Source of the DNA: a virus
Taxonomy: Duplodnaviria; Caudoviricetes
Length of the DNA stretch: 64,000 nucleotides
Virus record (IMG/VR): IMGVR_UViG_3300046779_001679
Location: 1 to 64,000 of that record
Strand: one strand, 5' to 3'
Positions 46,701 through 64,000 of the stretch are shown here, one piece after another; position 1 is the stretch's first letter; every line of letters starts with the position of its first letter. A model generated the notes under the pieces. The model made no database searches. It saw only the letters and a program-made list of their open reading frames with translations, and was not told the origin of the DNA. A program made the position numbers and the translations under genes.

Positions 46701-48297
46701 TTCCTACAGTAAATCCGTGTGCGCTTTGCGTAGTAACAGTAATTAAACTTGCACCTACCCCGCCTGTTCCAGTACTTGCATCTGTAATAACAGAAATTAC
46801 CGGAGTATCTGAGCCCGGAACTTCGTAAACGCTTGGGTATCCTCTAGCAATACCAATAGCTTGCCACTTTGTAGGTTGTAGTCCGTACTCAAAGTCAGCA
46901 TCGAGCATAGATTGAGGTTGTGCAACACGCATACGTTCAATTGCATCTGTACCAAAATCGTACGGTCTAATCTTTTGTTCTTCACCTTCGACAAAAATTT
47001 GAATATCGTCAGATGTACTAGAGTTAGAAGTATCGGCGTTTAAAGTAATTGTTGTTACATAATCAGCAACTTCCAAGAATCTTACAAAGTCTTCATCCTG
47101 AGAGTGAGAGTTACTAGTATATGTAGAACTAAAAGAAACTGTTGCGCTTGCTGTTGGATCACTAAAATTATATAAAATTTGGTTTGTAGTTGCATTAGTA
47201 ATTAATAACAACTTATCTAGTGTATATTGACCTTGTAACCTAATAGTAGTTACACCGTTTACCAGTGAAGGGATACTACTAGGTCCGTCTGCAATTACAG
47301 TGTTAACTAAGTTAACTAAACTTGTAATCCTGTTAGCTGCTCCAGCTTCGCCTTCTAAACCGTTAAGCAACTGTCTTGGGTAAGATTGTTGCAACGGTGT
47401 ATAACTACTAGCTGAAAAAATATTGCTAATTAATCCTTCAATAAATGTATGAGTGTCTATTTCAGTTTTTCTATCTCCCAGAATCTGGGGTACATCTCCG
47501 TCCCAGTATCTGCTAGCGATTGTTCTAGTTTTTGCGTTGCCGCCGTATTTTAAATCATTAAGATATGCATCAAATATGTAACCAACATCTCTTTCACATT
47601 TGCTGCTATCATATGTATATTCTGCAAAATTATAGTCGGAATAAATGATAGCCGGTAAAGTGGACAACCCGCCAGACATTACATTACTTGCTATTGTTGA
47701 CAACATAAGTGCCCATGCAATTGCGCTAATTTCACCCGGTGCTCCGGAAGTGTTTTGGGTGCTAGATACTGGACTCTGTTGTGATACATAAGGGGTAGCT
47801 GTTAAAATGTAATCAGAAATAAGCTCCCATAATTGTGATTGAATTGCAACTTCAACCGGGACGTTAATTACCTGAACTACACCACTCTGATAATACTGAC
47901 TAGCAACATAACTAACTTGTTCGTTCCCGCCGTATCTTAAATCGTGTATTAATGCATCAATGAGATATCCCATATCTCTTTTGCACTTTGATATTTCAGT
48001 TGGGCCATACTCATACCCGTAGAACAAATCTCCTACTACTGAACTTTGAGTAGTTTCAAAAATCCAAGCCGAAATTTCATCTAATATAAATTGTTTGTTG
48101 CTAGTTAACAATGCAACAGCAGCAGGGTATAAGTTTTGTGCAGTATCTTCCGCTACCTTTGATGCAATATAAGCAGTTGACTCTTTAATAATAAAAGTCT
48201 TGTTAGCACTTAATAAAGAATACGCATTTGGGTAAGCATTGGTTGAGCTAGATACCCCTGGTAAAAATACGTAATTTGCTATTCTTTTCTTTGCCAT
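40762..48297 (-). CDS. Giant (2511 aa) virion structural/fibre-like protein with several repeat families
   Basis: Gly/Ser/Thr/Val-rich; two CxRD-GY-YGGN repeats, seven beta-rich repeats, four FTxxSW...FPxGT repeats. Confidence 0.8.
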   Translation of the reverse strand: MAKKRIANYVFLPGVSSSTNAYPNAYSLLSANKTFIIKESTAYIASKVAEDTAQNLYPAAVALLTSNKQFILDEISAWIFETTQSSVVGDLFYGYEYGPTEISKCKRDMGYLIDALIHDLRYGGNEQVSYVASQYYQSGVVQVINVPVEVAIQSQLWELISDYILTATPYVSQQSPVSSTQNTSGAPGEISAIAWALMLSTIASNVMSGGLSTLPAIIYSDYNFAEYTYDSSKCERDVGYIFDAYLNDLKYGGNAKTRTIASRYWDGDVPQILGDRKTEIDTHTFIEGLISNIFSASSYTPLQQSYPRQLLNGLEGEAGAANRITSLVNLVNTVIADGPSSIPSLVNGVTTIRLQGQYTLDKLLLITNATTNQILYNFSDPTASATVSFSSTYTSNSHSQDEDFVRFLEVADYVTTITLNADTSNSSTSDDIQIFVEGEEQKIRPYDFGTDAIERMRVAQPQSMLDADFEYGLQPTKWQAIGIARGYPSVYEVPGSDTPVISVITDASTGTGGVGASLITVTTQSAHGFTVGTPITIRSLANTVSGFNRAEGTFIVLDVPSPTSFTYYASAKVGSIDGQILATTYTQLRKAGFYTGASIGSPTISVYSNGQTSSFTSKFVTPSGSSQIAVAGALPALGVPLSSAGINSGTQITGTVGTGGQQVLAVVDSSIEIGDTIISVNDTTGILEGMAIDNGSGTAIFVTEISGNDVALNGPMTVAKGGTTETYLNVIGTNVIPGGSGADFSVERVNGQYTNLLVTTPGVDYVTNSRIKILGSDLGGVDGDNDIIVKVASVIGGKVETVNHAGAAVLGNGIESYLTSGTAVLGKHIVSFTFAGTPNSPVGPFTNLIQSSTSGTGAGATFNVTDAGAGAYSVSLSTIGSGYIVGEVVTILGSVLEGADGVNNLTVTVDTIDGSGGILTFTHSGVANSPIGPFLGVTPDSNTGSGTGATFDINDSGSGAYLVALNTDGQGFNVGDELTILGSQLSGSNGVNDIVITITAVTSLDIATAISQSSTTGAGANATFNVSLDGLGGYSVTVVDPGNSYQSSDQVVILGSLLDGVDGTNDLTISITTVSSLNIASGIFQSSTDGVGTGASFNVSLDGAGNYNVTRVLKGTDYQVGDTITILGSLLDGTDITNDLTITVSSISGGAIDIATIQSGTSVSGERSYTGLAQSTTTGSGANSVFNVQTNNGEYDVTITSTGDSYVLGEEIVILGSVLGGQDGVNDLTITVVSAGVGGSILTFSSAGLPSSINATFNSLIGTNIAPGVNASFDITRSVGSYSVQPNLGGSGYAVNDVIKIDGTDIGGSDVLNDATITVTGVDVGGVITNATIVGTAVGGANIAFWSAVSISEPTIGSIANSTSITTVAIATIQVTWPTYHGLVPGMSILVDITSSGTNHLFAKGPFYIEEVPNLNSIRYTARTNGIIDTATALTGIVYARPQSFFVHRPFDGGVQLGTGGPQHGSQAIRMSKKYIRYQSGKGVMYTTGALFAPSYNLQAATASGTSIGSYIQFTTDDVDHGLQIGGKVRISGVDTTGFNGEYTVVSIQTERIFTVQAQSTLGNRYGYISSNAQVSILNWHGSTVRAGTFDEQNGMFWQYNGKELSVVRRSSTFQLAGVADIEKDTNLVTGTNTRFRDQIKAGDKIVIKGMTHVVTSVPSQTKLYVTPDYRGAKDCVGSKICLVQELVVPQSQFNLDKLDGTGPSGYNLDITKMQMIGMQWSWYGAGFIDFMLRGSDGNYVFAHRIRNSNVNTEAYMRTGNMPVRYEVHNEGASSKLRESITATQTTIPLVDATMFPDESGYIYVDNEVIAFTGKNRNTLTGCTRSASLPQFTGGAPRLFRAGAASTHEVNTGVILISNTITPIISHWGSAFLTDGLFDEDRGYIFNYASTGVQASTTKQTAFLIRLAPSVSNAQVGDLGEKELINRAQLLLQAIEVTSDAGAGGLVVEGILNPQNYPTDPTAITWSALNTSAAGGQPSFAQVAPGGSVSWSGGATTTNATATTTATLSGTATVPNNALFTTISGSNTLYVTKDSWDTLGATTGFAVDASETRFPSGTTITSIAENPSPVATTIGLITGNATIPPSPNFKTAAGVNFLYFTQASWTALNGQIGTAVYSTDFPAGTTVTNVTGPAVAAGQSYYTVTFSNNSLVIHNPVRSTIATYYTIVSGGTATIYFNPAQTYAPYVVGEVITVSGNAGVPQVNGTRTVTACTTQYVQFTGIGGNFNGSSTGSVVNNTSLNFASFSVTGQANVGSTSMNFTQSSWTALPVATAVVGRLVNDPTKFASGTQISTISSLKTFNGVNYYTVTFNNTLLTAQSAGSSLTFDYIPYYVLTLSKTASSNVNFGTTVPFTPSVLSANSSFLYFTKASWETLVNTYNAGIGTTVADVDKFPSGTSIQSISVLSAFAGTQYYRVNFTQSSVTTIAGGSNVTFQFGQPPYALPGETVFSFISTPGGSNSLDLSALKELTNTTLGGRGTYPNGPDVLAINVYKTSGTAVSSNIIIRWGEAQA

Positions 48298-49287: not shown

Positions 49288-50292
49288 ATGACCCAGCGAG
49301 CAAAGGCATTTTTTATCAACGGTGGTGCAGGCCGTGTTATTTGTTCAATTCCAGCATTAGAGAAATATGCAGAGGAAGTTAGCAAAGATTTTATTATTGT
49401 ATGCGAGGGCGGCACTGACTTTTACAAAGGCCACCCAGTTTTACATTCGCGTGCATACGATCATTGGCACAAAAACTTGTTCGAAGACAAGTTAGTTAAT
49501 ATGGACTTAGTAAGTCCAGAGCCATACAGAATTTGGGAATACTATAACCAAAAATGTTCAATTGCACAGGCATATGATATTGCAATTAATAACAAAGGTA
49601 TTCGAGACCTACAGCGACCGCTGATTAGACTAGTTAACGAAGAAATGTATGCTGGTTTCAATGTCATTAAAGAAGTAAAAGAAAAAACTAAAAAAGACAA
49701 AGTTGTTGTATTCCAACCCTTTGGTCGTGGCGTTCGTGCTGAAAATAACATTATCTATGACCCGTCTAACAGATCGTTTGAAGGACAGCACGTTATCAAT
49801 ATTGTTAAAAAGCTACAGAAAAAATACGCCGTTATTTTTATGAGTGAAATTGGCATTGATTTTTCAAAACATGGATGTAAGGAACCAGTTGCTACTCCAC
49901 AAAATACTTCACTTAGAACTTGGGCTGGTATTATTAATGCAGCTGATTATTTCTTAGGATGTGATTCTGTAGGACAACATCTAGCATATTCGTTTGATGT
50001 GCCATCAACTGTCGTAGTAGGGTCAACGTTTGGAATTAATGTATCCTATCCAAACTACGAAAAGTTTGATGTTTTAGATATGGGTGGTAATATTAGGCAA
50101 TACAGTCCAATTAGAATTACAATGGACGAAGTTGCTGATCGTGGTAATGACGGTATTATGATCATGAATGATAAAGTTGAAGATGCAATTGTTGATTCAG
50201 TTGTAAAAAATACTGCTAGATTTCCAAAAATGCAACAAGCTGATCCAAGTGTTAGTGTAACAGTTGCACCGGATGCAAGTTGCTGTGGTTAA
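49288..50292 (+). CDS. Glycosyltransferase family 9-like (heptosyltransferase fold)
   Basis: GGAGRVICSIPAL, VVFQPFG, FLGCDSVGQHLA...PSTVVVG. Confidence 0.75.
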   Translation: MTQRAKAFFINGGAGRVICSIPALEKYAEEVSKDFIIVCEGGTDFYKGHPVLHSRAYDHWHKNLFEDKLVNMDLVSPEPYRIWEYYNQKCSIAQAYDIAINNKGIRDLQRPLIRLVNEEMYAGFNVIKEVKEKTKKDKVVVFQPFGRGVRAENNIIYDPSNRSFEGQHVINIVKKLQKKYAVIFMSEIGIDFSKHGCKEPVATPQNTSLRTWAGIINAADYFLGCDSVGQHLAYSFDVPSTVVVGSTFGINVSYPNYEKFDVLDMGGNIRQYSPIRITMDEVADRGNDGIMIMNDKVEDAIVDSVVKNTARFPKMQQADPSVSVTVAPDASCCG

Positions 50293-50293
50293 T

Positions 50294-51214
50294 ATGAGAA
50301 GATTTTTTGCATTTGGTTGTAGTTATACTAGCTATTCTTGGCCTACTTGGGCTGATTTAGCTGGCATTGATTACGATTTTTCTAAAAATTGGGGGTTGTC
50401 TGGTATTGGAAATAAAGCTATTGCCGAAAGAGTTTCCGAAGCAAATGCTAGGTACGAGTTTGGTCCAGACGATGTTGTAGTTGTACAGTGGTCAAGTCAC
50501 TTGCGTAATGACTGGTGGCACATGTATAGTATGCCTGAAAGACACGCTGGGTGGAAAACTGCTGGCAGTATCTTCAACTACATCAATGAAAAGTTGTATG
50601 ACAAAAAATGGGTCGATACGTTTTTCTTCGAACCTGCATATTTCATGCATACCTTAAATCATATCTCATTAACACAAGGGTTGTTAGAATCTACCGGCTG
50701 TAAGTGGTATATGTCTAGCATTGGCGACATTAGAAACATGGGTGCTGATCTTAGAGATAACGAAGGAATTGGCGAGCAAACCGACTTCTTAAATCCTCGA
50801 GACAAAGAACAAGATCTGGTTGCATGGAAGAAAATTCCAGAATTACAGATTTATGACAAGGCTATTTGGCAGAAATATGCAGATCACTGGCTAACTCCTA
50901 TGGAACATGCTGCAAAGCAAACCCCAGAACACACTTTTGATTTTATCGATACTGTAAGAAAAAATAAAACATTTTTAGATACGCATCCGAGTACACGTCA
51001 ACATTTGCTATGGGTTGAAAAAGAGCTTAAAGATAAGTTGCAATTATCTGATAACTCAATTAAAATTGCAAATAAAGTAGCAGATGCTGTTGACCAAGTA
51101 CATGAAAAATTTAAGTTTAACAAACATACATTTGAATTAATGCTATCTAAGAGAACATTCTTCCCAGAAGATGCTACTAATTTAAAATGGCCTTTTAGAT
51201 ACGAAGGCTTTTAA
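50294..51214 (+). CDS. SGNH/GDSL-hydrolase-like protein
   Basis: Block I FGCSYT, block II NWGLSGIGN, VVVQWS, block V DTHP. Confidence 0.65.
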   Translation: MRRFFAFGCSYTSYSWPTWADLAGIDYDFSKNWGLSGIGNKAIAERVSEANARYEFGPDDVVVVQWSSHLRNDWWHMYSMPERHAGWKTAGSIFNYINEKLYDKKWVDTFFFEPAYFMHTLNHISLTQGLLESTGCKWYMSSIGDIRNMGADLRDNEGIGEQTDFLNPRDKEQDLVAWKKIPELQIYDKAIWQKYADHWLTPMEHAAKQTPEHTFDFIDTVRKNKTFLDTHPSTRQHLLWVEKELKDKLQLSDNSIKIANKVADAVDQVHEKFKFNKHTFELMLSKRTFFPEDATNLKWPFRYEGF

Positions 51215-51223
51215 AGGAACAAT

Positions 51224-53026
51224 ATGACAGAAAATAAAAAAGATATTTGGATTGCAGGTATTGCTAGAGGACACAACAGCGGAGTCTGCTTGCTTAAAAA
51301 CGGCGAGGTTGTTTTTGCTATCGAAGAAGAGCGTATTAGTCGTCACAAATACGACGGCGGGCCATATGCTACTATGTTAAAGATTCTAGATTACACAGAT
51401 CATCTAGATTACATGGTAATTGCACACACTCAAAAGTTAAGTGAAACAGCCGGTCGTGTTGACTTCTCAGGTGACGATGTATACACTGGCCTTGCTAGAA
51501 AACTAGGACTAATTAAACGACATCAAAATCCGTTTGATCATCCACAAGTTGTAGACCTAAGTCATGTACATCACAAGTTACATGCCGCGTGTGCTTTTTA
51601 TCGTTCGGGATTTGAAGAAGCCGCTGCACTAATTGTCGACGGCGCAGGAACATTTTTACCATTAATAATCAATGGCGAAAACGTAACTGGTTGGGAAACA
51701 GAAAGCATTTATGATTGCTCATATCCTGCTAACTTTAAAACAAAGTATAAACATATTGGGCTTAGAGGTCCAATGACAGGTGCATTGGTTACAAACTTTG
51801 ACGGTACAATGTATGACGAACCAGGGTCAACTCACGAAGCATTAGTAACAGATCGAGCAGGTATTACAAAAATTTACGAAGCAGTTACACAATATTGCGG
51901 ATGGTCAAGTATCGAAGCAGGGAAAACAATGGGCTTATTCCCATATGGCAAGGAAAATCCAGCAATTCCTCCATTGTTTGACGAATCAGGTATTGCGCCG
52001 TTGTCCAACAGAAACTTAGTAGTACCTACGTATCCAAACGGTGCTCACATTAATTTTGGATTATTTCCGTTTTTAAACAGCAGTAATGCTGATGACATTA
52101 CTACTTTAGAAAATCGCAGAGATCTAGCATATGCGGTTCAAACACAAACACAAGAGCAGGTTCTTAAATTAATTCGTAAAGCTAGCCAAATGACTGGCCA
52201 GAAAAAGGTGGTTATTAGCGGCGGTTATGGTTTAAACTGTGTTGCTAACTATTTCTACCTCGAGGGTCTTAAAGACGACGGAATTGAAATATATGTAGAA
52301 CCAATTAGCAACGATGCAGGTACAGCAATTGGTGCAGCACTTATGTTCTGGAAGGACATGATGCCAAACAGCACGAATGATTATAGCAAAGATGGCTTGT
52401 ACCTCGGATTTAAGTATAATTACACTAACGAAGATCTTGCAAAAGTTGCAAAAGATCATAATGCGGAAATTACAGATGCTACACACGAAGATGTAGTTGA
52501 CTTGTTAATGAACAAAAACATTGTATGTTTCTATCAAGGTCGTAGTGAAAACGGCCCTAGAGCATTAGGTAATCGCAGCATCTTGTTCAATCCAACATAC
52601 GAGGACGGGAAAGACTTTGTTAACCTAGTCAAGCGTAGAGAATACTTTAGACCATTTGCAGGCTCTATCTTACAAGAACATGTACATGAGTGGTTTGATC
52701 TTAGAGGAATGGAAGATAGTCCATATATGATGTATGCTGTTAATTGCCAACCAGGTGTTGAGTCTAAGATTCCTAGCATCATACACGTTGATGGTACATG
52801 CCGTATTCAAACTGTTACTAAAGAGCAAAACAATCATTATTACGATTTGATCAAAGCATTCTATAATCGTACAAGTGTACCGATTATCTTTAATACTAGC
52901 TTTAACCTAGGCGGTGATCCTTTAGTTGAAACATTAGAAGATGCATTAGACACGCTAGCTAGAAGCGATATCGAATACTTGTATTTGCCAGAGCTAGGCA
53001 AGCTAGTTAAAATAGCAAATCAGTAA
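51224..53026 (+). CDS. Full-length NodU/CmcH/TobZ-family O-carbamoyltransferase
   Basis: GHNSG...EEER, HHKLHA, VDGAG, GKTMGL, LNCVAN, DAGTAIGAA, GPRALGNRS, RPFA, HVDGTCR.QTV, NTSFN. Confidence 0.93.
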   Translation: MTENKKDIWIAGIARGHNSGVCLLKNGEVVFAIEEERISRHKYDGGPYATMLKILDYTDHLDYMVIAHTQKLSETAGRVDFSGDDVYTGLARKLGLIKRHQNPFDHPQVVDLSHVHHKLHAACAFYRSGFEEAAALIVDGAGTFLPLIINGENVTGWETESIYDCSYPANFKTKYKHIGLRGPMTGALVTNFDGTMYDEPGSTHEALVTDRAGITKIYEAVTQYCGWSSIEAGKTMGLFPYGKENPAIPPLFDESGIAPLSNRNLVVPTYPNGAHINFGLFPFLNSSNADDITTLENRRDLAYAVQTQTQEQVLKLIRKASQMTGQKKVVISGGYGLNCVANYFYLEGLKDDGIEIYVEPISNDAGTAIGAALMFWKDMMPNSTNDYSKDGLYLGFKYNYTNEDLAKVAKDHNAEITDATHEDVVDLLMNKNIVCFYQGRSENGPRALGNRSILFNPTYEDGKDFVNLVKRREYFRPFAGSILQEHVHEWFDLRGMEDSPYMMYAVNCQPGVESKIPSIIHVDGTCRIQTVTKEQNNHYYDLIKAFYNRTSVPIIFNTSFNLGGDPLVETLEDALDTLARSDIEYLYLPELGKLVKIANQ

Positions 53027-53039
53027 TTTTATAGCCAAT

Positions 53040-53067
53040 AAAAAAGCCGCTTTAAGCGGCTTTTTTT
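53040..53067. terminator. Bidirectional terminator AAAAAAGCCGC-tttaa-GCGGCTTTTTT
   Basis: Perfect stem between convergent operons. Confidence 0.9.
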
Positions 53068-53734
53068 ATGCTGATCCGTCCGGAGCCGGTGGCATGTGAA
53101 CTTTCCATGCATCGACTGAGGGAGTTTCTCCGGGCGCTGCACCGTAAGTTTGTGGCAAGTCGCGAAGTGCTTGTCTATATGCTTCCCATTTTGCTTTAAC
53201 TGATTCTGGTGCATCAGCAGGAGCAATATGATCGATAGCAGTTAACGCATGGTTTCTCCATTGACGCACTGTTTCCCAATCACTATGTGGTTTTTTCCAC
53301 GGATAAGGAGTAACAAACGAATTAGTTGATGGGCTGTATTCAATGTCCATTAATTCGTATGTGTGATCAGGTGGAGGAGTTTGTGGGCGCTTATAAACAT
53401 TACCATCGGGTAATTGTTCTTCGATCTGATCTAACAAATTATAATCGCGAATCTCATCTGCACCAACTAGTGTGCATAGTAACGGATTAGTTGTGCAATC
53501 AACAAATACTTTAACCATATCCATAGGAGTAGGATAATGCTCTCCATCTTCTTTTTCTGTTAAAAAGCGACCTGCATAACGATTAGTTTCTGCATTAACT
53601 AGAATCCAGATCTTATCAGGACCGTTATAAACCCAATTACCAGTTTTACCTAATTCATTTGTTTGGTACAAATAATCGTCGGGCGCATCGTAAGTAAAAG
53701 GTACGTCTACGTGTTTATTTTCTTTTTCTTCCAT
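53066..53734 (-). CDS. Tail-fibre assembly chaperone-like protein, paralog B
   Basis: C-terminal W..VRQWRNHAL..ID...WEAYRQALRDLP. Confidence 0.75.
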   Translation of the reverse strand: MEEKENKHVDVPFTYDAPDDYLYQTNELGKTGNWVYNGPDKIWILVNAETNRYAGRFLTEKEDGEHYPTPMDMVKVFVDCTTNPLLCTLVGADEIRDYNLLDQIEEQLPDGNVYKRPQTPPPDHTYELMDIEYSPSTNSFVTPYPWKKPHSDWETVRQWRNHALTAIDHIAPADAPESVKAKWEAYRQALRDLPQTYGAAPGETPSVDAWKVHMPPAPDGSA

Positions 53735-53747
53735 GTTTTACCTCTGA

Positions 53748-54500
53748 TTAACCGTATGTAATAGAAACTGCGCCACCTGCACCCCAGCTTCCACACCAGC
53801 AGTTACCACCGTGTGCTTGAGCACTTAGTCCTCCGCCGCCCGGGAATGCAGTGCAAGGGAACCAACCTGTGCAGTTACCGTTTGCTGATCCGTTGATACA
53901 ACCGCCGGGGCCTGTTTGAGGACCGGACTGGGCCATAGGGGCCATTGAAGCTAGCTGTTGAGGATATTGAGCACACCAAGTACTAGAAGTCATACTACTT
54001 TGCATACCGTGAATACAAATATCTCCACCGAAAGCACAGCAGCAATATGGATAAGGAATACTACATGTATAGCATCCATAATACATAAAGCAGTGAGTAT
54101 CACCGTAAGAACCGCCTTTTGCACAGAAGTTAGTTAAACCGTAACCCTGTACCCAGCTATCAAATCCAGGGCATCCTAAACATCCCGGAGTCATACCTGT
54201 TGTACTTGCTGCACAAACTGTCCATTGACAACCGCCTAATGTTCCTGTAACTGTTTTTACTGTATAAGCACCAGAACCGCCTGGGTAACCTTGCATACAG
54301 CAACATGCTCCGGCGCCACCGCCGCCGCCTCCCCACACTTCAAAAGTTACCCATGAAGTCCCTGCAGGTGCAGTAAATTGGCAACAACGTCCACCATTCG
54401 AAGGTGTGTTAACACTAGTGTTATAAACAACAATTTCTGTTGGATAGTTAGACGCAGCTGGTAGTGTTAATGTATGTAATAACGATCTTAAATCTGACAT
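53748..54500 (-). CDS. Cys/Gly-rich adhesin-like protein 3 (250 aa, 23 Cys)
   Basis: FEVWGGGGGGAG.CCC, FPGGGG, terminal WGAGGAVSITY. Confidence 0.75.
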   Translation of the reverse strand: MSDLRSLLHTLTLPAASNYPTEIVVYNTSVNTPSNGGRCCQFTAPAGTSWVTFEVWGGGGGGAGACCCMQGYPGGSGAYTVKTVTGTLGGCQWTVCAASTTGMTPGCLGCPGFDSWVQGYGLTNFCAKGGSYGDTHCFMYYGCYTCSIPYPYCCCAFGGDICIHGMQSSMTSSTWCAQYPQQLASMAPMAQSGPQTGPGGCINGSANGNCTGWFPCTAFPGGGGLSAQAHGGNCWCGSWGAGGAVSITYG

Positions 54501-54509
54501 TCTTATTCC

Positions 54510-55262
54510 TTATTTGTATGTAACAACAACTAGTCCGCCAGCACCCCAGCCACCCCAGCAGCATCCGCCATAAGAAATAGCTGTACCACCACCACCGCCT
54601 GGGAATGAGTTAAATCCGCCTGCTAAATCGCAGCCCATCCAAGATTCACCGCAGTGTGTTCGAGAAATTCTAGATCCAGCACCAATAGAAGGACCGCTAG
54701 GAATATATGTCCATGAGTCAAATCCGCACCATGATTGGTGTGCGCTACCTTGTGTTCCGCAAATTGACCAGTCATGGCCACATGTGCTGCCACAAATGTT
54801 TGTTGCACAGTGATAGTTTCCGCCAATAGCTGCCCAGCAGCATGACGCTCCACCTTCTCCACCGCTTGCACATAAATTTAAAGGGTATGTAGCAGAACCG
54901 TTACATGCGTAAGACGGAAATCCATTTGTACCGCAGTTTGCTTGTGAACAGCAACCTGAGCCTGCGGCACATAATGTATATTGTTGTCCAGGAACTACAC
55001 GAATAGTTCTACGGGCATATGATCCTGATCCGCCACCTTTTGATGGTTGCTGACAGCAACATGCTCCGCCGCCGTCACCTCCACCACCCCATACTTCAAA
55101 TTTAGCCCAAACTGTGCCCGCAGGTACTGTCCAAAGACAGCATCTGCCACCGTTGTTAACGTTTCCGGTAGAAGTATTATAAACATATAATATGTTTAAA
55201 TTATTCGAAGTATTAACGATGTTATATTTCGTGTCCGGAAATAACGATCTTAAATCTGCCAT
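54510..55262 (-). CDS. Cys/Gly-rich adhesin-like protein 2 (250 aa, 22 Cys)
   Basis: FEVWGGGGDGGG.CCC, FPGGGGG, terminal WGAGGLVVVTY. Confidence 0.75.
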   Translation of the reverse strand: MADLRSLFPDTKYNIVNTSNNLNILYVYNTSTGNVNNGGRCCLWTVPAGTVWAKFEVWGGGGDGGGACCCQQPSKGGGSGSYARRTIRVVPGQQYTLCAAGSGCCSQANCGTNGFPSYACNGSATYPLNLCASGGEGGASCCWAAIGGNYHCATNICGSTCGHDWSICGTQGSAHQSWCGFDSWTYIPSGPSIGAGSRISRTHCGESWMGCDLAGGFNSFPGGGGGTAISYGGCCWGGWGAGGLVVVTYK

Positions 55263-55265
55263 AAT

Positions 55266-55907
55266 TTATCCTGCCTGTCTTGTAAATGGCTCTTGAGGGA
55301 ACGGTACTTTCCATGGATCAATGCCAGCAAATGTTGTTGTAAGATCTCGTAGTTTTTGTCTGTATTCTTCCCAAACCGGTTTATCTGTGTCCGATGCTTG
55401 ACCGTAACGTATATCACTTGCGCCTAATAATGTATTTCTAACATTGATTAATTCTTCCCAAGTGACATGAGCTTGTTTCCAAGGATACGGTTTTACTGTT
55501 TCTTTAGTTTCTAAATTAACTTCAATTTCAGTTAGTTCGTATGTATGATCGGGAGGAGTTGGATCTGGGCAACCATAAGTACTTCCGTCTGGTAAAACTT
55601 CAACGGTATGTGTTAAATCTGCATAAACCTGTTCGCTATGGAATAAGCTAGCTAACACAGGATCTAATTCTGCGTCAATTGCTATCTTTGTCATTCCTGC
55701 TGGTGTAGGAACGTCAGCTCCGTTGTCTTTTTCTGTATAGTGAAATCTACTAGAAATTTTTCTAGTCTCATTATCAACAAACGCCCACAAGTATCTTGGA
55801 CCAGTGTAAGTCCAAGTTGCTGTCTTCTTCAAGCTATCTGATTGAGACAAATAGCTGTCAGGAATGTTGTATGTAAATGTTTTTTCAATGTTTGTGTTTT
55901 CTGCCAT
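55266..55907 (-). CDS. Tail-fibre assembly chaperone-like protein, paralog A
   Basis: W..LINVRNTLL.ASD...WEEYRQKLRDL; alignable by eye with the 53066 protein along its length. Confidence 0.75.
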   Translation of the reverse strand: MAENTNIEKTFTYNIPDSYLSQSDSLKKTATWTYTGPRYLWAFVDNETRKISSRFHYTEKDNGADVPTPAGMTKIAIDAELDPVLASLFHSEQVYADLTHTVEVLPDGSTYGCPDPTPPDHTYELTEIEVNLETKETVKPYPWKQAHVTWEELINVRNTLLGASDIRYGQASDTDKPVWEEYRQKLRDLTTTFAGIDPWKVPFPQEPFTRQAG

Positions 55908-55917
55908 TTTTTACCTC

Positions 55918-56670
55918 TTATTGTCCATAAGTAATCAATACTAATCCGCCGGCTCCCCAACCACCGAAGCAACATCCACCGCCGCAAGCACGCGAGTTTG
56001 CACCCGGTCCGCCTGGCCATCTAGATGGATAATAATCGTTACCGTTACGTGTTAACTGTGTAGTACAGTATTCCATACCTACTCTAAAAGTGTTACCGTA
56101 TTTGGCAGTCCCTGCTTGGCCAGTCCACTGGTTACTCCAGCAGTAGTTTGACTCTTTAGCAATGCTATTAATAGAAGGAGCTTGGAAATCTCCACTGCTT
56201 GTGCATCCATAGCTGCACGACGGAACGCAAATACCGGTACATCCTTGGTAGGATCTAAAGCATAAAGTACAGCCCATATAGCCGCCACCGGCGCAGGTTG
56301 CCATAGTGCCGTTTTGGCAAACTACCCAACTTGGATATCCGCATTGGCCGCAACATGTAGTTGCACAGCATCCTGACCCTGCTGCACATACACAAAAATA
56401 TGTACCAGCAGTTACTGTAAGTTGTTTTTTAACATAGTTACCAGAACCTGGTCCCCAGTAGTTACCCATACAGCAGCAAGAACCTGCACCATCGCCGCCA
56501 CCTCCCCATAATTCAAAAATAGCCCAAGTAACGCCCGTTGGAACTACCCAGCAGCAACATTGTCCGCCATTTGTAACACTTTGAATGTTAGTGTTATAGA
56601 TAGCTAGTTGTTGTTGAGTAAAGTTCGATGTAAACGTTGTATTAGGCAAAAGATCGCGTAATGATGACAT
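55918..56670 (-). CDS. Cys/Gly-rich adhesin-like protein 1 (250 aa, 26 Cys)
   Basis: FELWGGGGDGAG.CCC, WPGGPG, terminal WGAGGLVLITY. Confidence 0.75.
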   Translation of the reverse strand: MSSLRDLLPNTTFTSNFTQQQLAIYNTNIQSVTNGGQCCCWVVPTGVTWAIFELWGGGGDGAGSCCCMGNYWGPGSGNYVKKQLTVTAGTYFCVCAAGSGCCATTCCGQCGYPSWVVCQNGTMATCAGGGYMGCTLCFRSYQGCTGICVPSCSYGCTSSGDFQAPSINSIAKESNYCWSNQWTGQAGTAKYGNTFRVGMEYCTTQLTRNGNDYYPSRWPGGPGANSRACGGGCCFGGWGAGGLVLITYGQ

Positions 56671-56681
56671 GTCTGTTTACC

Positions 56682-57002
56682 TTATTTTAGAATTGTCCAA
56701 CCGAGTGCAGTGCTGTAAACCAGTGTAACAGTTGAGTTATTAACGTTAATTGTTAAGTTTTCTGCTAAGTTCTGAATGTTAGCGCCGTTTCTTGCTACAG
56801 TAATATTGTTAGACCCGCTAACACCTGCTGCATCAGTAATTTGTACGGTATCACCGTCTAACAAACTTCCTGCTGCTGGCAAAGTAATAGTAAATCCACC
56901 TGCTGTACAAAGAATACGATCGTTAACTTGAGCACTATAAGCACTGCTAATTACTCTAGTTACAGATCCAGCTGTACCAGTTGTTGTAATATATCTTCCC
57001 AT
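56682..57002 (-). CDS. Small fibre/baseplate-attachment beta-sandwich protein (T4 gp9/gp34-N-like repeat)
   Basis: TITLPA...GDTVQITD..G...NNITVARNG..I...ENLTIN...VTLVY...GW. Confidence 0.7.
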   Translation of the reverse strand: MGRYITTTGTAGSVTRVISSAYSAQVNDRILCTAGGFTITLPAAGSLLDGDTVQITDAAGVSGSNNITVARNGANIQNLAENLTINVNNSTVTLVYSTALGWTILK

Positions 57003-57026
57003 GTGATTAGTCCTTTATCAGTATAT

Positions 57027-57347
57027 TTATGACGTTGGCGTCTCAATTCCAAACGCCACTGCTGATGTGTTGCCTGTATTAGCGTAAACTACTAAATTGC
57101 GGCCTGCTTCTAGAACTAAACCAGTTCTTTCTAGCACACCCTTTGGTAGAATTTCTGTATCGTATTCGATCCATTCAGCTGCCGTTGGTGATGATGTAGC
57201 AGAAAGTGCAACTCTAGCAGTAATTGCAGAGTTACTTCTGTTACAAATCGATATTGTTGCTACTGCAAACGTATTTGATGGGCATGTATAAACAACCGTG
57301 TTTGTAGCGCCGGTTAAGTTTGATGTTCCCAAAACTCCTGTTGCCAT
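57027..57347 (-). CDS. Small beta-rich virion protein
   Basis: VYTCP...ISICNR...ERTGLVL...GIE; GGAG upstream. Confidence 0.65.
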   Translation of the reverse strand: MATGVLGTSNLTGATNTVVYTCPSNTFAVATISICNRSNSAITARVALSATSSPTAAEWIEYDTEILPKGVLERTGLVLEAGRNLVVYANTGNTSAVAFGIETPTS

Positions 57348-57359
57348 ATTTTTTCTCCA

Positions 57360-60300
57360 TTATCCTAAAAGTAAGAAGTCCATTGCGACTGGCAACCCAT
57401 TAATACCGCCAGTAAAATTCATGGTAGCTGAAACATTAATTTGTACACCAGTAGTAGTACTAATACTATTACCAGCAATATAAATTACACCAGCTGTTAG
57501 TGTATTTACGTTCAATGCACTTGATCCGCCGCCAATTTGTGACGCAATGTATGCCTTAATCGCTTTTTGTGTCGGAACAATATTATCACTGTTTGCAGTA
57601 AAATATTGATCTGTTGAGAACTGGGTAATTGTTGCGCCAGTTCCGCCAAGTGCAACTGAACCTAGTGTTAATGAGTTCAAACCAGCTAAGTTGAAAGCAT
57701 CAGCATTAATGCTTGCGACACCAGTTGCCTGTTCAACGGAGAACAGTGTACCTACTCTAAAGTTACCGTCTTGGTCAGTACTTGTATAGAATACACGACC
57801 GCCGCCATTTCCTACAGTTTCCTTACTAGGATCTGGAAGTTGTAACGGTGTATTTGGATAGTTAGTTGTTGTTACGTTACCAGTACCGATACTTAAGAAG
57901 TCATGGCCAGTTAATCGAACTTGACTATACTTGAGCCTTAGTGTAATGCCAGTGCCGTGGGCAGGAGCATTACCTGCTACTAAGTCTGGGCTGATTTGGA
58001 ATCTAGCTGTATATGGACTAGATCCACCTGCCCCATTACCTTGTGTACCTAAGTAGTTAGTAACTTGAACTAACTTGTAATAGTTGCCGTTTAGAGCAAT
58101 TTGAATGTTTGATCCAGGTGTTGGTTGCTCTAACAAACCTGCTACGTTAATAAAGTAACCAGTTTGATATTGATCTGCGTACCCGTTACCTTCGACTGTT
58201 GCAATAGCAGTAGCATATTGCAAGCCTCTGTTAACAAAGTTAGGACTTGCAAGAACACCGTTACTAGATCTAACTTGCCATGTTGCGCTCGATGTTTGGT
58301 TAGGATCAATAATTTGAATTGTTGGTGCCGACGGATAACTACTACCTGGCTCAACAACTCTAAATTCGCTAATCTCACCGTTAGTAACTTTTACACGGCC
58401 TTGAGCTGTGCAGCCTAAGTTTAGATAATTAGTAACAGAAGTGTTTGCCGATGATAACACAACCCATACTGGGCTTGAATTTGGGTTACCGTAAGCGACT
58501 TGATACCAGTTAAATGTTGTTGTTAAAGAACGTTGCTTCCAGTTAATACCGTCGTCTGATGTAGTAATGATATTGCTAGAAGATGCTGTTGCACAGAAAA
58601 CGCCTGCGCCGTAAACAACTTTTTGCCAGGAAGCAGTACCTAGACCGTTGTTTGTAGATAATGTCCAATTAATACCATCTTTAGAGTATGCAAATGCTGA
58701 CGATCCAGTTGCAACTGCAACAAACAATCCTTTACCAAATGTTACACTTACCCAACCAAGTGTTGCTGGTAGGGTTCTGCTGACCCAAGTAACTCCGTTG
58801 TCGCTACTTGATGCTGCTTGATTTGTGCCACTATTAACTGTAACATATACTCCATTACCATAAGCAAGTCCAGTCCATGCTCCGCTAGCAGGAAGTGTGC
58901 CGCCTGCTGTCCACGATGCTCCATTTGTAGAGTATGCTGTGCTTGTTGAACTACTACGTACTGCTACAAACACTCCTCTTCCGTAAGTTAATCCAGACCA
59001 ACCTCCAGAAGATGGCATGTTTCCACCTGTTATCCATGCAGACGTCGGATCATCAGTGTATTCGCAAATATTGCCGGCGCTAATTGCTACCCAGCGTCCT
59101 GCACCATACGCCATGACGTTCCAAAATACATTATTAGTTCTTGAGCCGCCACTAACAAAAGATGAACCAGTTGTGCTAATTGCAGTGCTAGTACCATTCT
59201 CAGGAAGAGCAACAAAATATCCGCCAATGCCTGTACCTGTGTAGGTAAAGTTTTGTATTGCACCAGTACTTGCATTAACATCGTTAACAGTAATAGTTAA
59301 ATTGTTAGCAGGTGCTGTGCCGCCAAGGCTTGTTCCTAGGATAGTTAATACATCGCCGTAACTATACCCAGTTCCTGGATTGTTAGATGTAACAGCATAT
59401 GATACACCTGTTCTTACAATAGTAAATGTAGCGTTTGCGCCAGTGCCGCCTGTTGCAGAAACGCCAACTGAACCAGCACCATTATAAGTTTTAATAGTAT
59501 CACCGTAAACTAGATTGAAATACGATCCAGCTACAATTGTGCCTTCTGTTGCAGTGTATGCAGGACTTGTAAACTTAACACGTGGTTCAATAATATAAGC
59601 GGTAGTTAAATCAAGTGCTGATACAATTGATGTACCTGGAATAATGTGATCCCAGCCAACTGCATGTAGCTCTAATGGGCCACCGCCTGATCCAGTACCA
59701 ACGGTAATCGCTGTTCCACCTACACCAGTTGACAGGCTAAATGTATTTCCGACGATGTTAACGACATAATAATTAGTGCCAACTGCTACACCTGACATAC
59801 CTGTTAGTAGAGTTCCGACTAACTGTACTCTCATATTTTCATATAAGGTTGTAGCATCTGCTACAGTAAATGTAACCGAGCTAGTAGATTGGATAGCAAG
59901 AGGTGTAAAACTTTCTTTACCAATTGTACCTGATTTTGTACCAGAATTATATGTTAAGAAATATCCAGTTTGTCCAGAACCAGTTCCACTAGTAATAATG
60001 ATTCTCATACCAACATATGCAGCACTAATTGCACTATCAGTTGCAGCAATAGTAATGCTTGTTGCTGATCCGCCTTGAGCTACGTTAGCGATAGATGCAT
60101 GATCAGCACCACTGCTTAGAATTCGACTTTCAAATACTCCACCGTCACGGAATTCTGGAGTGTATGCGTCAACTTCAACGTTATATCCAGTACCGCTAAC
60201 ACTAAATGTTGCAGAGTTATAGTTTGAACCTGCGTTAGTAAATTCAAGTCTACTTACAGTGTCAACACCGTCAGTAACTACTAAGCCAACTTGTGCTTCA

Positions 60301-63300
60301 TAATAACGGTTATTAACTGTTGCAGTAATTGGCACTTCATAAGTGTCAACACCTTCTGCTAACGATCCATATGTTCCGTAAGAGTTGTTACCGTTTGTAG
60401 CACGGATTTTTCCACCTAATTCGGCCAAATAACCGGCATAGTTGTAATAACTAAACACAGATACAAGTTCTGTTAATGCATTAGAGCCAGTACACCATAC
60501 ACCAATACCGTCGCTCAATACTTGTGTAAAGTCGTTTGACACGATTGAACGGTTACCTGCGCTGTGTAACGCACCGTCGATCTTGCATCCAACACATCCT
60601 GTACCAAATGTAGTTACGTTTTGTACGTATGGAGAACGAGGTGTAATCCATACATTGCTGTCTGTTGGACCGTAACCAGGATCTAGAGATGCATAAGCAC
60701 CTGCGGTTGGACGTTGTGTTCCGTAAGCATTTGCAGTACCTAATACACCATTTAAACCATTCAATGTCATATTACGAAGGCCTGTGCCGTTACGTAAGTA
60801 GAACATATCAGATAATTGTGATCCAGTAATGGCATGATTATACAATGTTGCAGCTCTTATTGACTTATAGTTACCTAAGTAGTTGATGTCATAAATCAAT
60901 GCATCAATATATGCTGCCATATCTCTCTTACAAGCAACTTCGTCAAAGCTGTAAGATACTGTCATAGAACCACTAGCAGTAATTACTTCAAATACTGTTG
61001 AAGATCCCTGGATTGGTGTAAGAGTAAAGGTAACTAACGACGGTGTTGTTAGAACATAGTAAGTTGTACCAGAAGTTACATTTCCAAATAAAGATCCGCC
61101 AGTAAATTTAACAGGATCACCAACAGTTAAGTTATGTGCAGACGATGTTGTAAATTCGTTTGTTCCAGATGTTGTATTTGTAACAGTGCCACCGAAGCTA
61201 GCATTAACCCATGCAGTAGCTTCGTTTGATAAGAATGATTTATTGATTCTTAAAATTTCAGCGCCATTGATAGTAGCTAGTACATTGTTATATTCATTAG
61301 TGCCACATGTTTCAACATTTCCGCCGACGGTACCTGTAATAGAACCGGTTGCGTCTACGTTAGTCATTGCATTTCCGCCATACGTATTAGTAATTCGAAT
61401 TGTCGTTGCATCGATAATCGAATGAATCCAGTATTGCTGGTTTGCTACAATCATGCCTAGTGAACCTGCAAACTTAACTGGAAGACCTGCGTAAATTCCA
61501 GTAGTCGACGACACAATAATATTGCCGCCAACTACTGTATCTGTGACAGTAATTGTAATAACGCCGGCAATAGTTTCAATAATATCGTTAATAGTTTCAA
61601 CAGCTTGTGCTGCTGATCCATATGCTGCAATTCGTTTTGCTTTTTGTGCAATAAAATTAATCGCACCAATTTCAGCAGCAAGCTGGGTGTTGAGCACCTC
61701 TTGAGCTGTTGCTCGGTGATATGCCATACCCGCCTTGATACTATTAAAATTTGTACCAAATAATACGTCGTATGCTATAGCTTCAACAATTAAACCAGCA
61801 TCTCTTGAGCATAAGGCCGAATTAAAGTTCATTGATTGGTAGAACTTGTTAACCCAAGCAACTGTGTCTGATTGAATTTCACTCTTAGCAGCAATCAATG
61901 CGTTAAATGCATTTTGTAAATCAGAGCTAAATGTATATGCTGGATATGCTAGGACTGACGGGCTTGTTCCGCCGCTAGTAATTGTTGCAATAATTTCATC
62001 AATTCTTGCTTGTGCAAATGTTGACGATTCTGCAGAGCCAGCAGTACCGCCTGTGTTTTGAACCAGTGCTGTTGATTTAGTCCAACTTGTATTTTCTGTG
62101 ATTACATAACCAACAACGTCAGCTAAATGGTTGTATGCTGCAATTACTTCATCCTTTTCTCCTGCGCCATAAACTCCTGCGCCGTTGGAGAAATATGCAT
62201 TAGCTGCAATTCTAGTTTGATAGTTGCCTCCGTATGTTAGGTCATAAATTAATGCGTCAATGATGTAACCAACATCGGCTTCGCAAGAAGCAGTATTGTA
62301 AGTAAAGGATCCAGTAAATGGAGCAATTGACCCAGCAACTTGATCTGCAATCCATTCGGTAATTTCGTTAATAATAAATGTTTTGTTTAGAAGTAACTGG
62401 TCTTTTGCATCACCGTATCCAATTAGGATAGAAGTATTATAACCAGTGTATTCAGTATACTCAAAGTCTGGTAAAGAACCAATACCGTTTGCCACAATTT
62501 CAGCAACAGTACCTGCACTCTTAAGAACGGATGCTACAGCACTCGTGCTTCCAGTATTTCCAACAATGTTTGATAGGTATTGTTGAGTTTCAGTATTTCC
62601 ACTAGTTGGAGTTATTGGGTTATTTAAAACTAAGTCAGGAATAATGTTTTTAATTCTATTCAGAACGCTGATAGTTTTTGGTTTATCGTTAACCAAGTTT
62701 GTGTTTGCCGGTGCTGGCTGAACAACGCTTGAGCGTAATTCGTCACCTACAATTGCTGTGTTTCTAGGAACAACAATTGGTAATACTTCGTTGTATGTCC
62801 CTGTCTTTACACTAATAGTTGTTCCAGGGTTTACTACAGCTGGAATAGCACTAGTTGTACCAGCTTCGAGGCCAGTAATAACAATGTCGACTAAGTTACT
62901 AGTAATAGTTGATGCGTTTTCTTCTGCTACTAAACTAAGATCTACAATTTGTATAGCTTGGTTAGCTAATAATACACCATTTAAATCCTGATAGTTTACT
63001 GCTGGTGCAGTATTGCTAACTACATTTTCGATCAATGTTTTTACGTATTCTAAAGTGCCAGTAAATGCTGGAATGTCATAGTCATTAACACCAGCTACAT
63101 AATCGTTGCCAGCAGCATTAAAATATGCAAGTGCAGTAGTAGTAGTTTGTAAAGTTCCGCTATGGCTTAGGTCAAATGCTACAGCATCAACCATAATTCC
63201 GGTATCTCGTTCAGTTGAGGCTTCGCTAAACACAAATGTTCCAGTCATTGATCCAGCACCTGCTGACAACGAACGAGCTCCACCGCCTAAAGTATTAGAA

Positions 63301-64000
63301 ACTTTGAAACTTGTATTTGCAGTAATGCTATGTACATAGTATGTTGTACCTGCTACAACACTCCCGACAGTACCAGTAAACACAATTGGCATGTTAACAT
63401 AGATGCCAGAAGTGTCTGTAGTTAAAAAGTCAGTAGCATTTGCTGCTGAAACAATAACTTTAAATGTTTGAGAAACATAGTTTTTTGCTTCTTTAATAAT
63501 GAATTGTTTATTTTTTCTTAACAACTCAGTTGCATTTGGATTTAGATAGCCGTCCTCGATTTGTTTGGCAGCAAATCTTACAGATTTCCAAGGCTTATCA
63601 ATCGTTAAACCTTGACCGTTTCCAGTAACATCTGCGCCAGAGTTTGCAACATACACGACATTATTGATAACACCAAAATAAGTCCAAGTTGGTTTTTCTC
63701 CTACTACGCGAAGAACTTGGCCATCGGTGCCAATTGGCAACCTTGTTGGGCCAGCACCGCCATAGTACAACGTATCGCCTTGTGTAGTTAAGATTGATGT
63801 GATCGAACCAACTGCTAATAAGTTCCAGTAGCTACCAGTAGTATCATTATCTGGTCTATTTAAAGTTGCACCAACGTGTGCTTGAGTACAAATATATGTG
63901 TTTACACCGAATGCAACAGAGTCACCTAATACATATGCGGTACCGCTAGCCCAAGTAACTGAAAAACCAGCCGGTGATACCGATTGCACTGCGCCGCCGC
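57360..64000 (-). CDS. Giant tail fibre/spike-like protein (more than 2200 aa, 5' end outside window)
   Basis: Frame open to the window edge; W..GT.Y..GD.V repeat, beta-helix-like segment, Asp-box repeats, CxRD/YGGN repeats. Confidence 0.8.
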   Translation of the reverse strand, partial: GGAVQSVSPAGFSVTWASGTAYVLGDSVAFGVNTYICTQAHVGATLNRPDNDTTGSYWNLLAVGSITSILTTQGDTLYYGGAGPTRLPIGTDGQVLRVVGEKPTWTYFGVINNVVYVANSGADVTGNGQGLTIDKPWKSVRFAAKQIEDGYLNPNATELLRKNKQFIIKEAKNYVSQTFKVIVSAANATDFLTTDTSGIYVNMPIVFTGTVGSVVAGTTYYVHSITANTSFKVSNTLGGGARSLSAGAGSMTGTFVFSEASTERDTGIMVDAVAFDLSHSGTLQTTTTALAYFNAAGNDYVAGVNDYDIPAFTGTLEYVKTLIENVVSNTAPAVNYQDLNGVLLANQAIQIVDLSLVAEENASTITSNLVDIVITGLEAGTTSAIPAVVNPGTTISVKTGTYNEVLPIVVPRNTAIVGDELRSSVVQPAPANTNLVNDKPKTISVLNRIKNIIPDLVLNNPITPTSGNTETQQYLSNIVGNTGSTSAVASVLKSAGTVAEIVANGIGSLPDFEYTEYTGYNTSILIGYGDAKDQLLLNKTFIINEITEWIADQVAGSIAPFTGSFTYNTASCEADVGYIIDALIYDLTYGGNYQTRIAANAYFSNGAGVYGAGEKDEVIAAYNHLADVVGYVITENTSWTKSTALVQNTGGTAGSAESSTFAQARIDEIIATITSGGTSPSVLAYPAYTFSSDLQNAFNALIAAKSEIQSDTVAWVNKFYQSMNFNSALCSRDAGLIVEAIAYDVLFGTNFNSIKAGMAYHRATAQEVLNTQLAAEIGAINFIAQKAKRIAAYGSAAQAVETINDIIETIAGVITITVTDTVVGGNIIVSSTTGIYAGLPVKFAGSLGMIVANQQYWIHSIIDATTIRITNTYGGNAMTNVDATGSITGTVGGNVETCGTNEYNNVLATINGAEILRINKSFLSNEATAWVNASFGGTVTNTTSGTNEFTTSSAHNLTVGDPVKFTGGSLFGNVTSGTTYYVLTTPSLVTFTLTPIQGSSTVFEVITASGSMTVSYSFDEVACKRDMAAYIDALIYDINYLGNYKSIRAATLYNHAITGSQLSDMFYLRNGTGLRNMTLNGLNGVLGTANAYGTQRPTAGAYASLDPGYGPTDSNVWITPRSPYVQNVTTFGTGCVGCKIDGALHSAGNRSIVSNDFTQVLSDGIGVWCTGSNALTELVSVFSYYNYAGYLAELGGKIRATNGNNSYGTYGSLAEGVDTYEVPITATVNNRYYEAQVGLVVTDGVDTVSRLEFTNAGSNYNSATFSVSGTGYNVEVDAYTPEFRDGGVFESRILSSGADHASIANVAQGGSATSITIAATDSAISAAYVGMRIIITSGTGSGQTGYFLTYNSGTKSGTIGKESFTPLAIQSTSSVTFTVADATTLYENMRVQLVGTLLTGMSGVAVGTNYYVVNIVGNTFSLSTGVGGTAITVGTGSGGGPLELHAVGWDHIIPGTSIVSALDLTTAYIIEPRVKFTSPAYTATEGTIVAGSYFNLVYGDTIKTYNGAGSVGVSATGGTGANATFTIVRTGVSYAVTSNNPGTGYSYGDVLTILGTSLGGTAPANNLTITVNDVNASTGAIQNFTYTGTGIGGYFVALPENGTSTAISTTGSSFVSGGSRTNNVFWNVMAYGAGRWVAISAGNICEYTDDPTSAWITGGNMPSSGGWSGLTYGRGVFVAVRSSSTSTAYSTNGASWTAGGTLPASGAWTGLAYGNGVYVTVNSGTNQAASSSDNGVTWVSRTLPATLGWVSVTFGKGLFVAVATGSSAFAYSKDGINWTLSTNNGLGTASWQKVVYGAGVFCATASSSNIITTSDDGINWKQRSLTTTFNWYQVAYGNPNSSPVWVVLSSANTSVTNYLNLGCTAQGRVKVTNGEISEFRVVEPGSSYPSAPTIQIIDPNQTSSATWQVRSSNGVLASPNFVNRGLQYATAIATVEGNGYADQYQTGYFINVAGLLEQPTPGSNIQIALNGNYYKLVQVTNYLGTQGNGAGGSSPYTARFQISPDLVAGNAPAHGTGITLRLKYSQVRLTGHDFLSIGTGNVTTTNYPNTPLQLPDPSKETVGNGGGRVFYTSTDQDGNFRVGTLFSVEQATGVASINADAFNLAGLNSLTLGSVALGGTGATITQFSTDQYFTANSDNIVPTQKAIKAYIASQIGGGSSALNVNTLTAGVIYIAGNSISTTTGVQINVSATMNFTGGINGLPVAMDFLLLG

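Follow-up and report, generated by a model that had tools for sequence, protein, structure and literature searches.

Three cysteine-rich paralogs with a predicted TNF-like and glycine-rich-lattice fold form part of a probable fibre-tip module in aquatic phages

We analysed a 64,000-nucleotide stretch of Caudoviricetes DNA (the window; positions 1 to 64,000 of IMG/VR record IMGVR_UViG_3300046779_001679), which belongs to an 82.5-kb contig fragment estimated to be 22% complete. Between positions 53066 and 56670, five minus-strand genes separated by 3–13 nt encode three cysteine-rich proteins, Cys1, Cys2 and Cys3, and two chaperone-like partners, chapA and chapB, in the order Cys1-chapA-Cys2-Cys3-chapB (Table 1). 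An initial annotation of the sequence had described three Cys-packed paralogs of 250 amino acids (aa) with 26, 22 and 23 Cys, a set of common motifs and this gene order, all of which we confirmed from the open reading frames (ORFs) and their composition. Each paralog contains 44–51 Gly, and their Cys content of 8.8–10.4% is approximately 10-fold that of the window proteome, where the median of 58 non-overlapping ORFs is 0.9% and Cys1-3 are the top three by far. The paralogs are 41–42% identical to one another and have in common the motifs NGGxCC, FExWGGGG, GxCCC, PGG and WGAGG..V..TY, together with an N-terminal M-x-x-L-R-x-L-L motif; chapA and chapB are 43% identical. Scans for promoters, terminators and T4 late boxes inside the cassette yielded nothing above shuffled sequences. 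Fourth in the window for Cys is a 111-aa ORF at 35212-35547 (+), with 8.1% Cys and 8.1% Gly, which may be a chance ORF.

Table 1. Genes of the cassette and its upstream flank in the window, in order of transcription
Feature	Position	Strand	Basis
3′ part of 2,683-aa tail-fibre gene	57360..64000	-	ORF list; gene extends to contig position 65411
S1, 106 aa, fibre-like domain, possible joint/adaptor	57027..57347	-	PHROG 11338 'tail fiber protein', E 8.6e-10
S2, 106 aa, fibre-end domain, probable fibre-to-tip adaptor	56682..57002	-	PHROG tail-fibre matches
Cys1, 250-aa Cys/Gly-rich, predicted TG-domain tip protein, 26 Cys	55918..56670	-	PHROG 4205, E 1.6e-26
chapA (T1), 213-aa tail-fibre-assembly-like protein	55266..55907	-	PF16778 sub-threshold; PHROG 9740, PHROG 4912
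Cys2, 250-aa Cys/Gly-rich, predicted TG-domain tip protein, 22 Cys	54510..55262	-	PF21722 Gly_rich_2; PHROG 4205
Cys3, 250-aa Cys/Gly-rich, predicted TG-domain tip protein, 23 Cys	53748..54500	-	AlphaFold2 model; variable segment ~139-218
chapB (T2), 222-aa tail-fibre-assembly chaperone-like protein	53066..53734	-	PF16778 Phage_tail_APC; beta N-domain + helical C-domain

All three Cys proteins match PHROG 4205, a family of unknown function. Cys2 also matches PF21722 (Gly_rich_2), at a marginal 25.3 bits against a gathering cut-off of 24.3 bits; Cys3 scores a sub-threshold 13.0 bits and Cys1 has no match. About half of the 120 homologs listed carry a precomputed PF21722 match. We modelled Cys3 with AlphaFold2 from a 105-sequence alignment (predicted local distance difference test, pLDDT, 85.1; predicted template modelling score, pTM, 0.83). 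The best structural match of the model was the fibre of cyanophage Pam3 (7ypx_A; Z 18.3, root-mean-square deviation 2.8 Å over 189 residues, Foldseek E 2e-6), followed by a Bxb1 tail-tip protein (9d93_Qa, Z 12.7) and the TNF-like plus glycine-rich (TG) domains of ALK/LTK (Z 8.1–9.5), after which the next match falls to Z 4.8. Two glycine motifs, WGGGGxGxG (56–64) and PGGGG (220–224), are at least 90% conserved. Searches of PDB sequences with a profile of the three paralogs and with a profile of 105 sequences gave no meaningful match and no gp38, so it is the fold that links these proteins to Pam3. On this basis, Cys1-3 are predicted to be stand-alone TNF-like plus glycine-rich-lattice (TG, Gly_rich_2) heads of the Pam3 gp24 kind.

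The family is large and unnamed. An exhaustive profile search returned 1,488 clusters at 50% identity with E ≤1e-3, and we confirmed the family in 284 IMG/VR stretches. A search of phage records at the nucleotide level and a search of NCBIfam gave no match, none of 170 database clusters at 90% identity has a name, and all database copies are hypothetical proteins.

Pam3 gp24 is an experimentally characterised, homotrimeric tail fibre with a GGGGxGG motif. [quoted passage not shown] Its chaperone, gp25, grips the TNF-like/glycine-rich head with an N-terminal beta-sandwich and trimerises through a C-terminal helical domain; the two proteins assemble into a 3:3 complex, and virions contain no gp25 (PMC9608196, PMC9942802). 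The trio and its partners resemble gp24 and gp25 (PDB 7YPX, 7YFW) in the TNF-like and glycine-lattice head with GGGGxGG-type motifs, in combining a conserved frame with a distal part that varies, and in a downstream chaperone gene encoding a beta N-domain and a helical C-domain. They differ in that identity to Pam3 is approximately 20%, with no sequence-level match, and in that the trio contains 9–10% Cys with invariant CC/CCC clusters, unlike gp24. Moreover, the cassette has a fixed trio of paralogs and two chaperones where Pam3 has one of each, and the trio heads, which have no long N-terminal helical shaft, lie behind the giant fibres of a T4-like jumbo phage, whereas the Pam3 head sits directly on a minimal baseplate.

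The initial annotation had proposed a polyglycine adhesin related to T-even gp38. The first part was right in kind, as a glycine-lattice tip fold is predicted, but the family is that of Pam3 gp24 and Gly_rich_2. Cys1-3 had no match to Pfam GP38 at E up to 1, and S16 gp38 (PDB 6F45) was not among the fold matches listed for the Cys3 model in two fold searches. Like the trio, S16/T-even gp38 is a small adhesin of ~250 aa, encoded after a fibre gene, with a polyglycine lattice, variable segments between the glycine motifs and a short N-terminal attachment part. Unlike the trio, it has a beta-helix instead of a TNF-like sandwich and a three-layer lattice, is attached to the gp37 trimer as a monomer and has no Cys enrichment (PMC9608196). 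The authors of the Pam3 structure themselves compared gp24 with S16 gp38 and pointed out that the middle domain differs (PMC9608196, PMC9942802).

Two other structures provide more distant parallels. The Bxb1 tail-tip "brush" protein (PDB 9D93 chain Q; gp33 per PMC13243192) is an accessory tail-tip protein of ~230 aa that shares the glycine-rich bundle domain. It differs in belonging to a siphophage of a Gram-positive-type host, in being attached via gp30/gp31, and in having no paralog trio and no known Cys enrichment. The extracellular TG domain of ALK/LTK (PDB 7NX3, 7LS0, 7LIR) shares the combined fold over ~143 aa and uses it for ligand binding; it is a domain of animal receptor kinases, and at 13–15% identity the likeness is one of fold only.

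The two partner proteins had been read as chaperones, and the profile matches and the chapB model agree with this. chapB matches PF16778 (Phage_tail_APC) at 47.8 bits, above the cut-off of 26.6 bits; chapA, at 23.3 bits, falls below it. Both match "tail fiber assembly" PHROGs (E 1e-5 to 3e-10). An AlphaFold2 model of chapB (pLDDT 95.8) consists of strands between residues 8 and 134 and helices at 153–167, 177–191 and 193–196, the layout of N-terminal beta and C-terminal helical domains described for Pam3 gp25. Pam3 gp25 itself was not among the structural matches listed for this model. Over 63 aa of the C-terminal domain, the model matches 2kz6 (Z 5.8, 33% identity), and the beta domain had no strong match in the fold searches. 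Compared with PF16778 proteins such as Mu Tfa (PDB 5YVQ), chapB is alike in its C-terminal helical domain, which scores above the cut-off, and in gene position directly after tip genes; it differs in its ~150-residue N-terminal beta domain, which has no clear solved counterpart, and in being one of two chaperone paralogs per cassette. As the matches to solved chaperones are weak, the assignment of chapA and chapB as tail-fibre-assembly-type proteins is based on sequence profiles, domain architecture and the place of the genes in the cassette. Among relatives, T1 (chapA) is 209–260 aa long with one exception of 327 aa (L036). T2 (chapB) varies widely, from 201 to 496 aa, as seen in loci L035, L049, L050, L056, L058, L060 and L076-L080, and has therefore gained extra domains in some lineages.

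To compare gene content, we used a set of 78 loci, consisting of 75 IMG/VR loci and Synechococcus phage isolates. The order C-T-C-C-T, where C is a Cys protein and T a chaperone-like protein, was found in 68 of the 78 loci. Contig ends cut six others, and four have C-C-C-T, including S-CAM1 and S-SSM7. The number of Cys proteins is always three, across at least three lineages. With tblastn, homologs were detected only in Synechococcus myoviruses (S-CAM1, S-CAM3, S-SSM7, S-SSM6a and Sf-FS3), which have three copies each, behind annotated tail fibre genes and ahead of a carbamoyltransferase gene. Synteny extends almost everywhere over the block S1-S2-C-T-C-C-T and over the GT9-like gene and carbamoyltransferase gene that come next. 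The GT9-like and NodU-type carbamoyltransferase genes (49288-53026, + in the window) adjoin the cassette in either orientation in almost every related locus (L006-L080), and the same linkage to the tip cassette is present in S-CAM1 and S-SSM7, so that sugar-modifying enzymes persistently accompany the putative fibre-tip module.

In a tree of 158 distinct sequences, the five-gene cassette is represented by two phage lineages, in each of which C1, C2 and C3, the counterparts of Cys1, Cys2 and Cys3, form pure clades (supports 0.45–0.996; 0.98 for the Cys1 clade). It follows that the triplication is old and that all its copies have been kept. The three copies of S-SSM7 group together (support 1.0). 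The Cys proteins are held to 240–268 aa in the five-gene type and are 261–384 aa in the four-gene type. The equal lengths of Cys1-3 had been taken as a sign of co-assembly in register. As relatives have unequal lengths within one genome (243/246/240, 246/256/266 and 264/261/250 aa), the 250/250/250 pattern here is a coincidence.

The tail sheath encoded in the window (31813-35106, -) is closest to those of the jumbo phages Atu_ph07, Phosso and PA5oct (43–46% identity). Since the only cultured carriers of the cassette are Synechococcus myoviruses, this suggests module transfer, in which the putative fibre-tip module would move between distant T4-like lineages. We did not find psbA in five partial genomes (22–60% complete).

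The initial annotation had placed the trio directly downstream of a giant fibre gene, but two 106-aa ORFs, S1 and S2, intervene. These two small genes precede the trio in nearly every related locus. The C-terminal region of the 2,683-aa fibre resembles the annotated tail fibres that occupy the equivalent syntenic position in S-CAM1 and S-SSM7, and this fibre is the probable carrier of the tip module. Over 91 aa, S2 is 38% identical (E 7e-12) to the very C-terminal end of the tail fibre of S-SSM7 (L002 1770-6203), which suggests that S2 forms the fibre end or an adaptor. S2 thus corresponds to a free-standing copy of the last ~90 residues of the S-SSM7 fibre; the fibre end is a separate gene both here and in S-CAM1. 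Upstream of the cassette, contig positions 57360-76346 (locus L081) hold giant minus-strand genes for proteins of 2,683, 1,946 and 1,430 aa, and a fourth giant gene (2,511 aa) lies at 40762-48297. The phage therefore encodes at least four very large fibre-like proteins.

We consider it likely, with a probability of roughly 0.75, that the five genes and the two small upstream genes constitute a chaperone-assisted fibre-tip module of the TG type. In this module, Cys1-3 would be heads, in which a frame of conserved glycine motifs and beta-strands presents the fast-evolving segment at ~139–218 as the distal, host-contacting surface. By analogy with Tfa and Pam3 gp25, chapA and chapB would grip the TG heads with their beta domains, and their helical domains would drive trimerisation in the cytoplasm before release. 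The M-x-x-L-R-x-L-L motif may attach the heads to the fibre end or to S2 as the adaptor. The heads may form a single C1:C2:C3 heterotrimer, as in C1q, and their cysteines may become cross-linked by disulfides when the virion reaches oxic water, leaving a number of thiols free. The trio would be located in the virion and probably recognises the host of this uncultured giant aquatic phage.

Several observations weigh against this reading or parts of it. The Cys3 model has no long N-terminal helical docking domain of the Pam3 type; the head is preceded by ~20 residues with a single short predicted helix (4–7) at pLDDT ~55. The chapB model matches solved Tfa weakly (Mu Tfa 5yvq_B, Z 2.6). When evolutionary distances were compared, the partial correlation of T1 with C1 was 0.30, and the chaperones co-varied more strongly with S2 (partial r 0.51–0.66). 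Cys counts are odd in 54 cases and even in 51. A phylogenetically independent-pairs test of paired Cys gain and loss, applied to 595 column pairs, lacked power because contrasts were too few (all median p ≥0.25). Lastly, the search for a thiol oxidase or thioredoxin, an idea of the initial annotation, found neither Erv1/ALR nor thioredoxin in the five partial genomes, which is uninformative given their completeness and an Erv1 control that matched nowhere.

The tip proteins and the chaperones vary more than the genes beside them: mean ortholog identity is 0.45–0.57, compared to 0.68–0.75 for the adjacent enzymes. Entropy among the Cys proteins peaks at residues 139–218, while the strands and glycine motifs are conserved, a pattern that fits a putative host-contact surface. 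The three paralogs diverge at about equal rates, and the C1, C2 and C3 distances co-vary beyond background (partial r 0.43–0.57). Across L006-L080 and the window region 53066-57347, T1 and T2 gave a partial r of 0.56 and the chaperones gave 0.30–0.48 with the Cys proteins preceding them; distance-matrix co-variation of this kind is weak, non-independent evidence. As the T1-C1 value is only 0.30, the distances do not support the view that each chaperone serves its upstream neighbour, or a dedicated pairing based on adjacency; the initial annotation had called the chaperones dedicated. The chaperones may act on the S2/fibre junction as well.

For the proposed oligomeric state, we tentatively favour a C1:C2:C3 heterotrimeric head, at slightly below even odds, with three homotrimeric tips a close second. 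Our preference is based on the presence everywhere of exactly three old, non-interchangeable paralogs, which evolve at equal rates, co-vary in their distances and have an N-terminal motif in common, and on the trimeric state of the Pam3 fold. In the alternative, which we regard as somewhat unlikely, each paralog would form its own Pam3-like homotrimeric head, on the same or different fibres, providing wider or layered host recognition. Pam3 gp24 is itself a homotrimer, the putative docking motif is of the identical type in all three paralogs, and several giant fibres (2,511, 2,683, 1,946 and 1,430 aa) could each bear a tip. Moreover, the S-SSM7 copies look like recent duplicates, which an obligate ancient heterotrimer does not require. 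However, separate homotrimers do not account well for a copy number fixed at three in all 78 loci or for the equal rates and co-varying distances, and three heads would have to be served by just two chaperones, or by a single one where the order is C-C-C-T.

The cysteines occupy defined positions. With columns numbered as in Cys3, the alignment of 158 sequences has Cys at a frequency of at least 93% in ten columns (39, 40, 66–68, 96, 137, 176, 201 and 234) and of 71–86% in six more (102, 103, 126, 143, 146 and 153); the remaining Cys columns are paralog-specific or variable. Of the 144 best representatives at 50% identity, 143 have a high Cys content (6–12.8%). The exception, P0270, is a 5,418-aa protein with seven tandem Gly-rich, Cys-poor copies of the domain (profile E 2.8e-27) and 0.2% Cys. 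In its three alignable copies, the positions of the conserved cysteines are taken by I, L, A, T, S and G, with Y at one column. The cysteines therefore lie at core or small-residue positions of the fold, as well as in variable loops. None of the computational results that the initial annotation had named as contradicting it (no polyglycine sandwich predicted, or homologs with unconserved Cys positions and free length variation) was observed.

These substitutions would be expected if the cysteines were packing residues only, reflecting a lineage habit of swapping small or hydrophobic core residues for Cys. Many Cys positions have also been gained or lost among orthologs, and the parity of Cys counts is random. 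Yet at each of the ten conserved columns at least 93% of the 158 sequences have Cys, although the rest of these sequences is only 30–55% identical, and a Cys content of approximately 10% persists in all but one of the 144 listed 50%-identity clusters. This pattern indicates strong purifying selection for Cys itself and not for any small residue, making mere packing improbable.

Equally improbable, in our judgement, is that the cysteines bind metal (Zn, Fe or Cu) through thiolate sites at the CC/CCC and CxxC motifs, which would stabilise the lattice already in the reducing cytoplasm. The fibre tips of T4 formed by gp37 and gp12 bind Fe and Zn. CC (39–40) and CCC (66–68) are invariant in the trio family, CxxC is frequent at 107/110 and 143/146, odd Cys counts are tolerated, and the proteins must be stable before lysis. 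However, CxxC is not universal, with Cys2 lacking the first Cys of both motifs; the conserved columns include no conspicuous His or Asp that could serve as a co-ligand; and P0270, which is Cys-poor and has plain core residues (I, L, A, T, S, G) in the conserved Cys columns, shows no metal-site signature.

As for the proposed redox chemistry, we rank disulfide cross-links formed after lysis first, giving them about an even chance, with metal binding and mere packing as the alternatives. We do so because Pam3 provides a precedent for functional disulfides in the virion of an aquatic phage (PMC9608196, PMC9942802). Redox-dependent virion assembly has been shown for Pam3. Raw co-occurrence between some Cys columns, for example 39 and 201 (r 0.83), is suggestive. 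As odd counts are as common as even ones (54 versus 51), the cysteines cannot all be paired, and a model with all cysteines paired was ruled out by these counts.

A more far-reaching version of the favoured reading, which ties the heterotrimeric head and the redox chemistry together, seems unlikely. In it, C1:C2:C3 would be an obligate, C1q-like heterotrimeric receptor-binding knob in which ~70 cysteines are kept reduced during chaperone-assisted folding and then cross-link or load metal after lysis, with reactive thiols possibly taking part in host attachment or triggering. Such a knob would represent a widespread, so far undescribed route by which aquatic phages build their host-recognition tips.

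The fold, the chaperone type and the pairing of head with chaperone are already known from Pam3, and the trio is therefore not the uncharacterised class of adhesin that the initial annotation had proposed: the fold class is that of the gp24 TG head. In the searchable literature, we found no description of the Cys-rich subfamily, the fixed trio or the two-chaperone cassette. The trio is a real, widespread and uncharacterised form of a known type of phage receptor-binding tip. S-CAM1 and S-SSM7 are cultured carriers, which makes the questions raised here directly testable, and P0270 is useful as a natural "Cys-free" comparison.

This large Cys-rich protein family lies where abundant, uncultured jumbo phages of aquatic habitats and cultured Synechococcus myoviruses are likely to recognise their hosts. 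Should the three chains assemble into a single head, this would be the first phage tip of the TG fold to be heterotrimeric. If the cysteines cross-link after release, redox-dependent virion assembly of the Pam3 type would extend to fibre tips.

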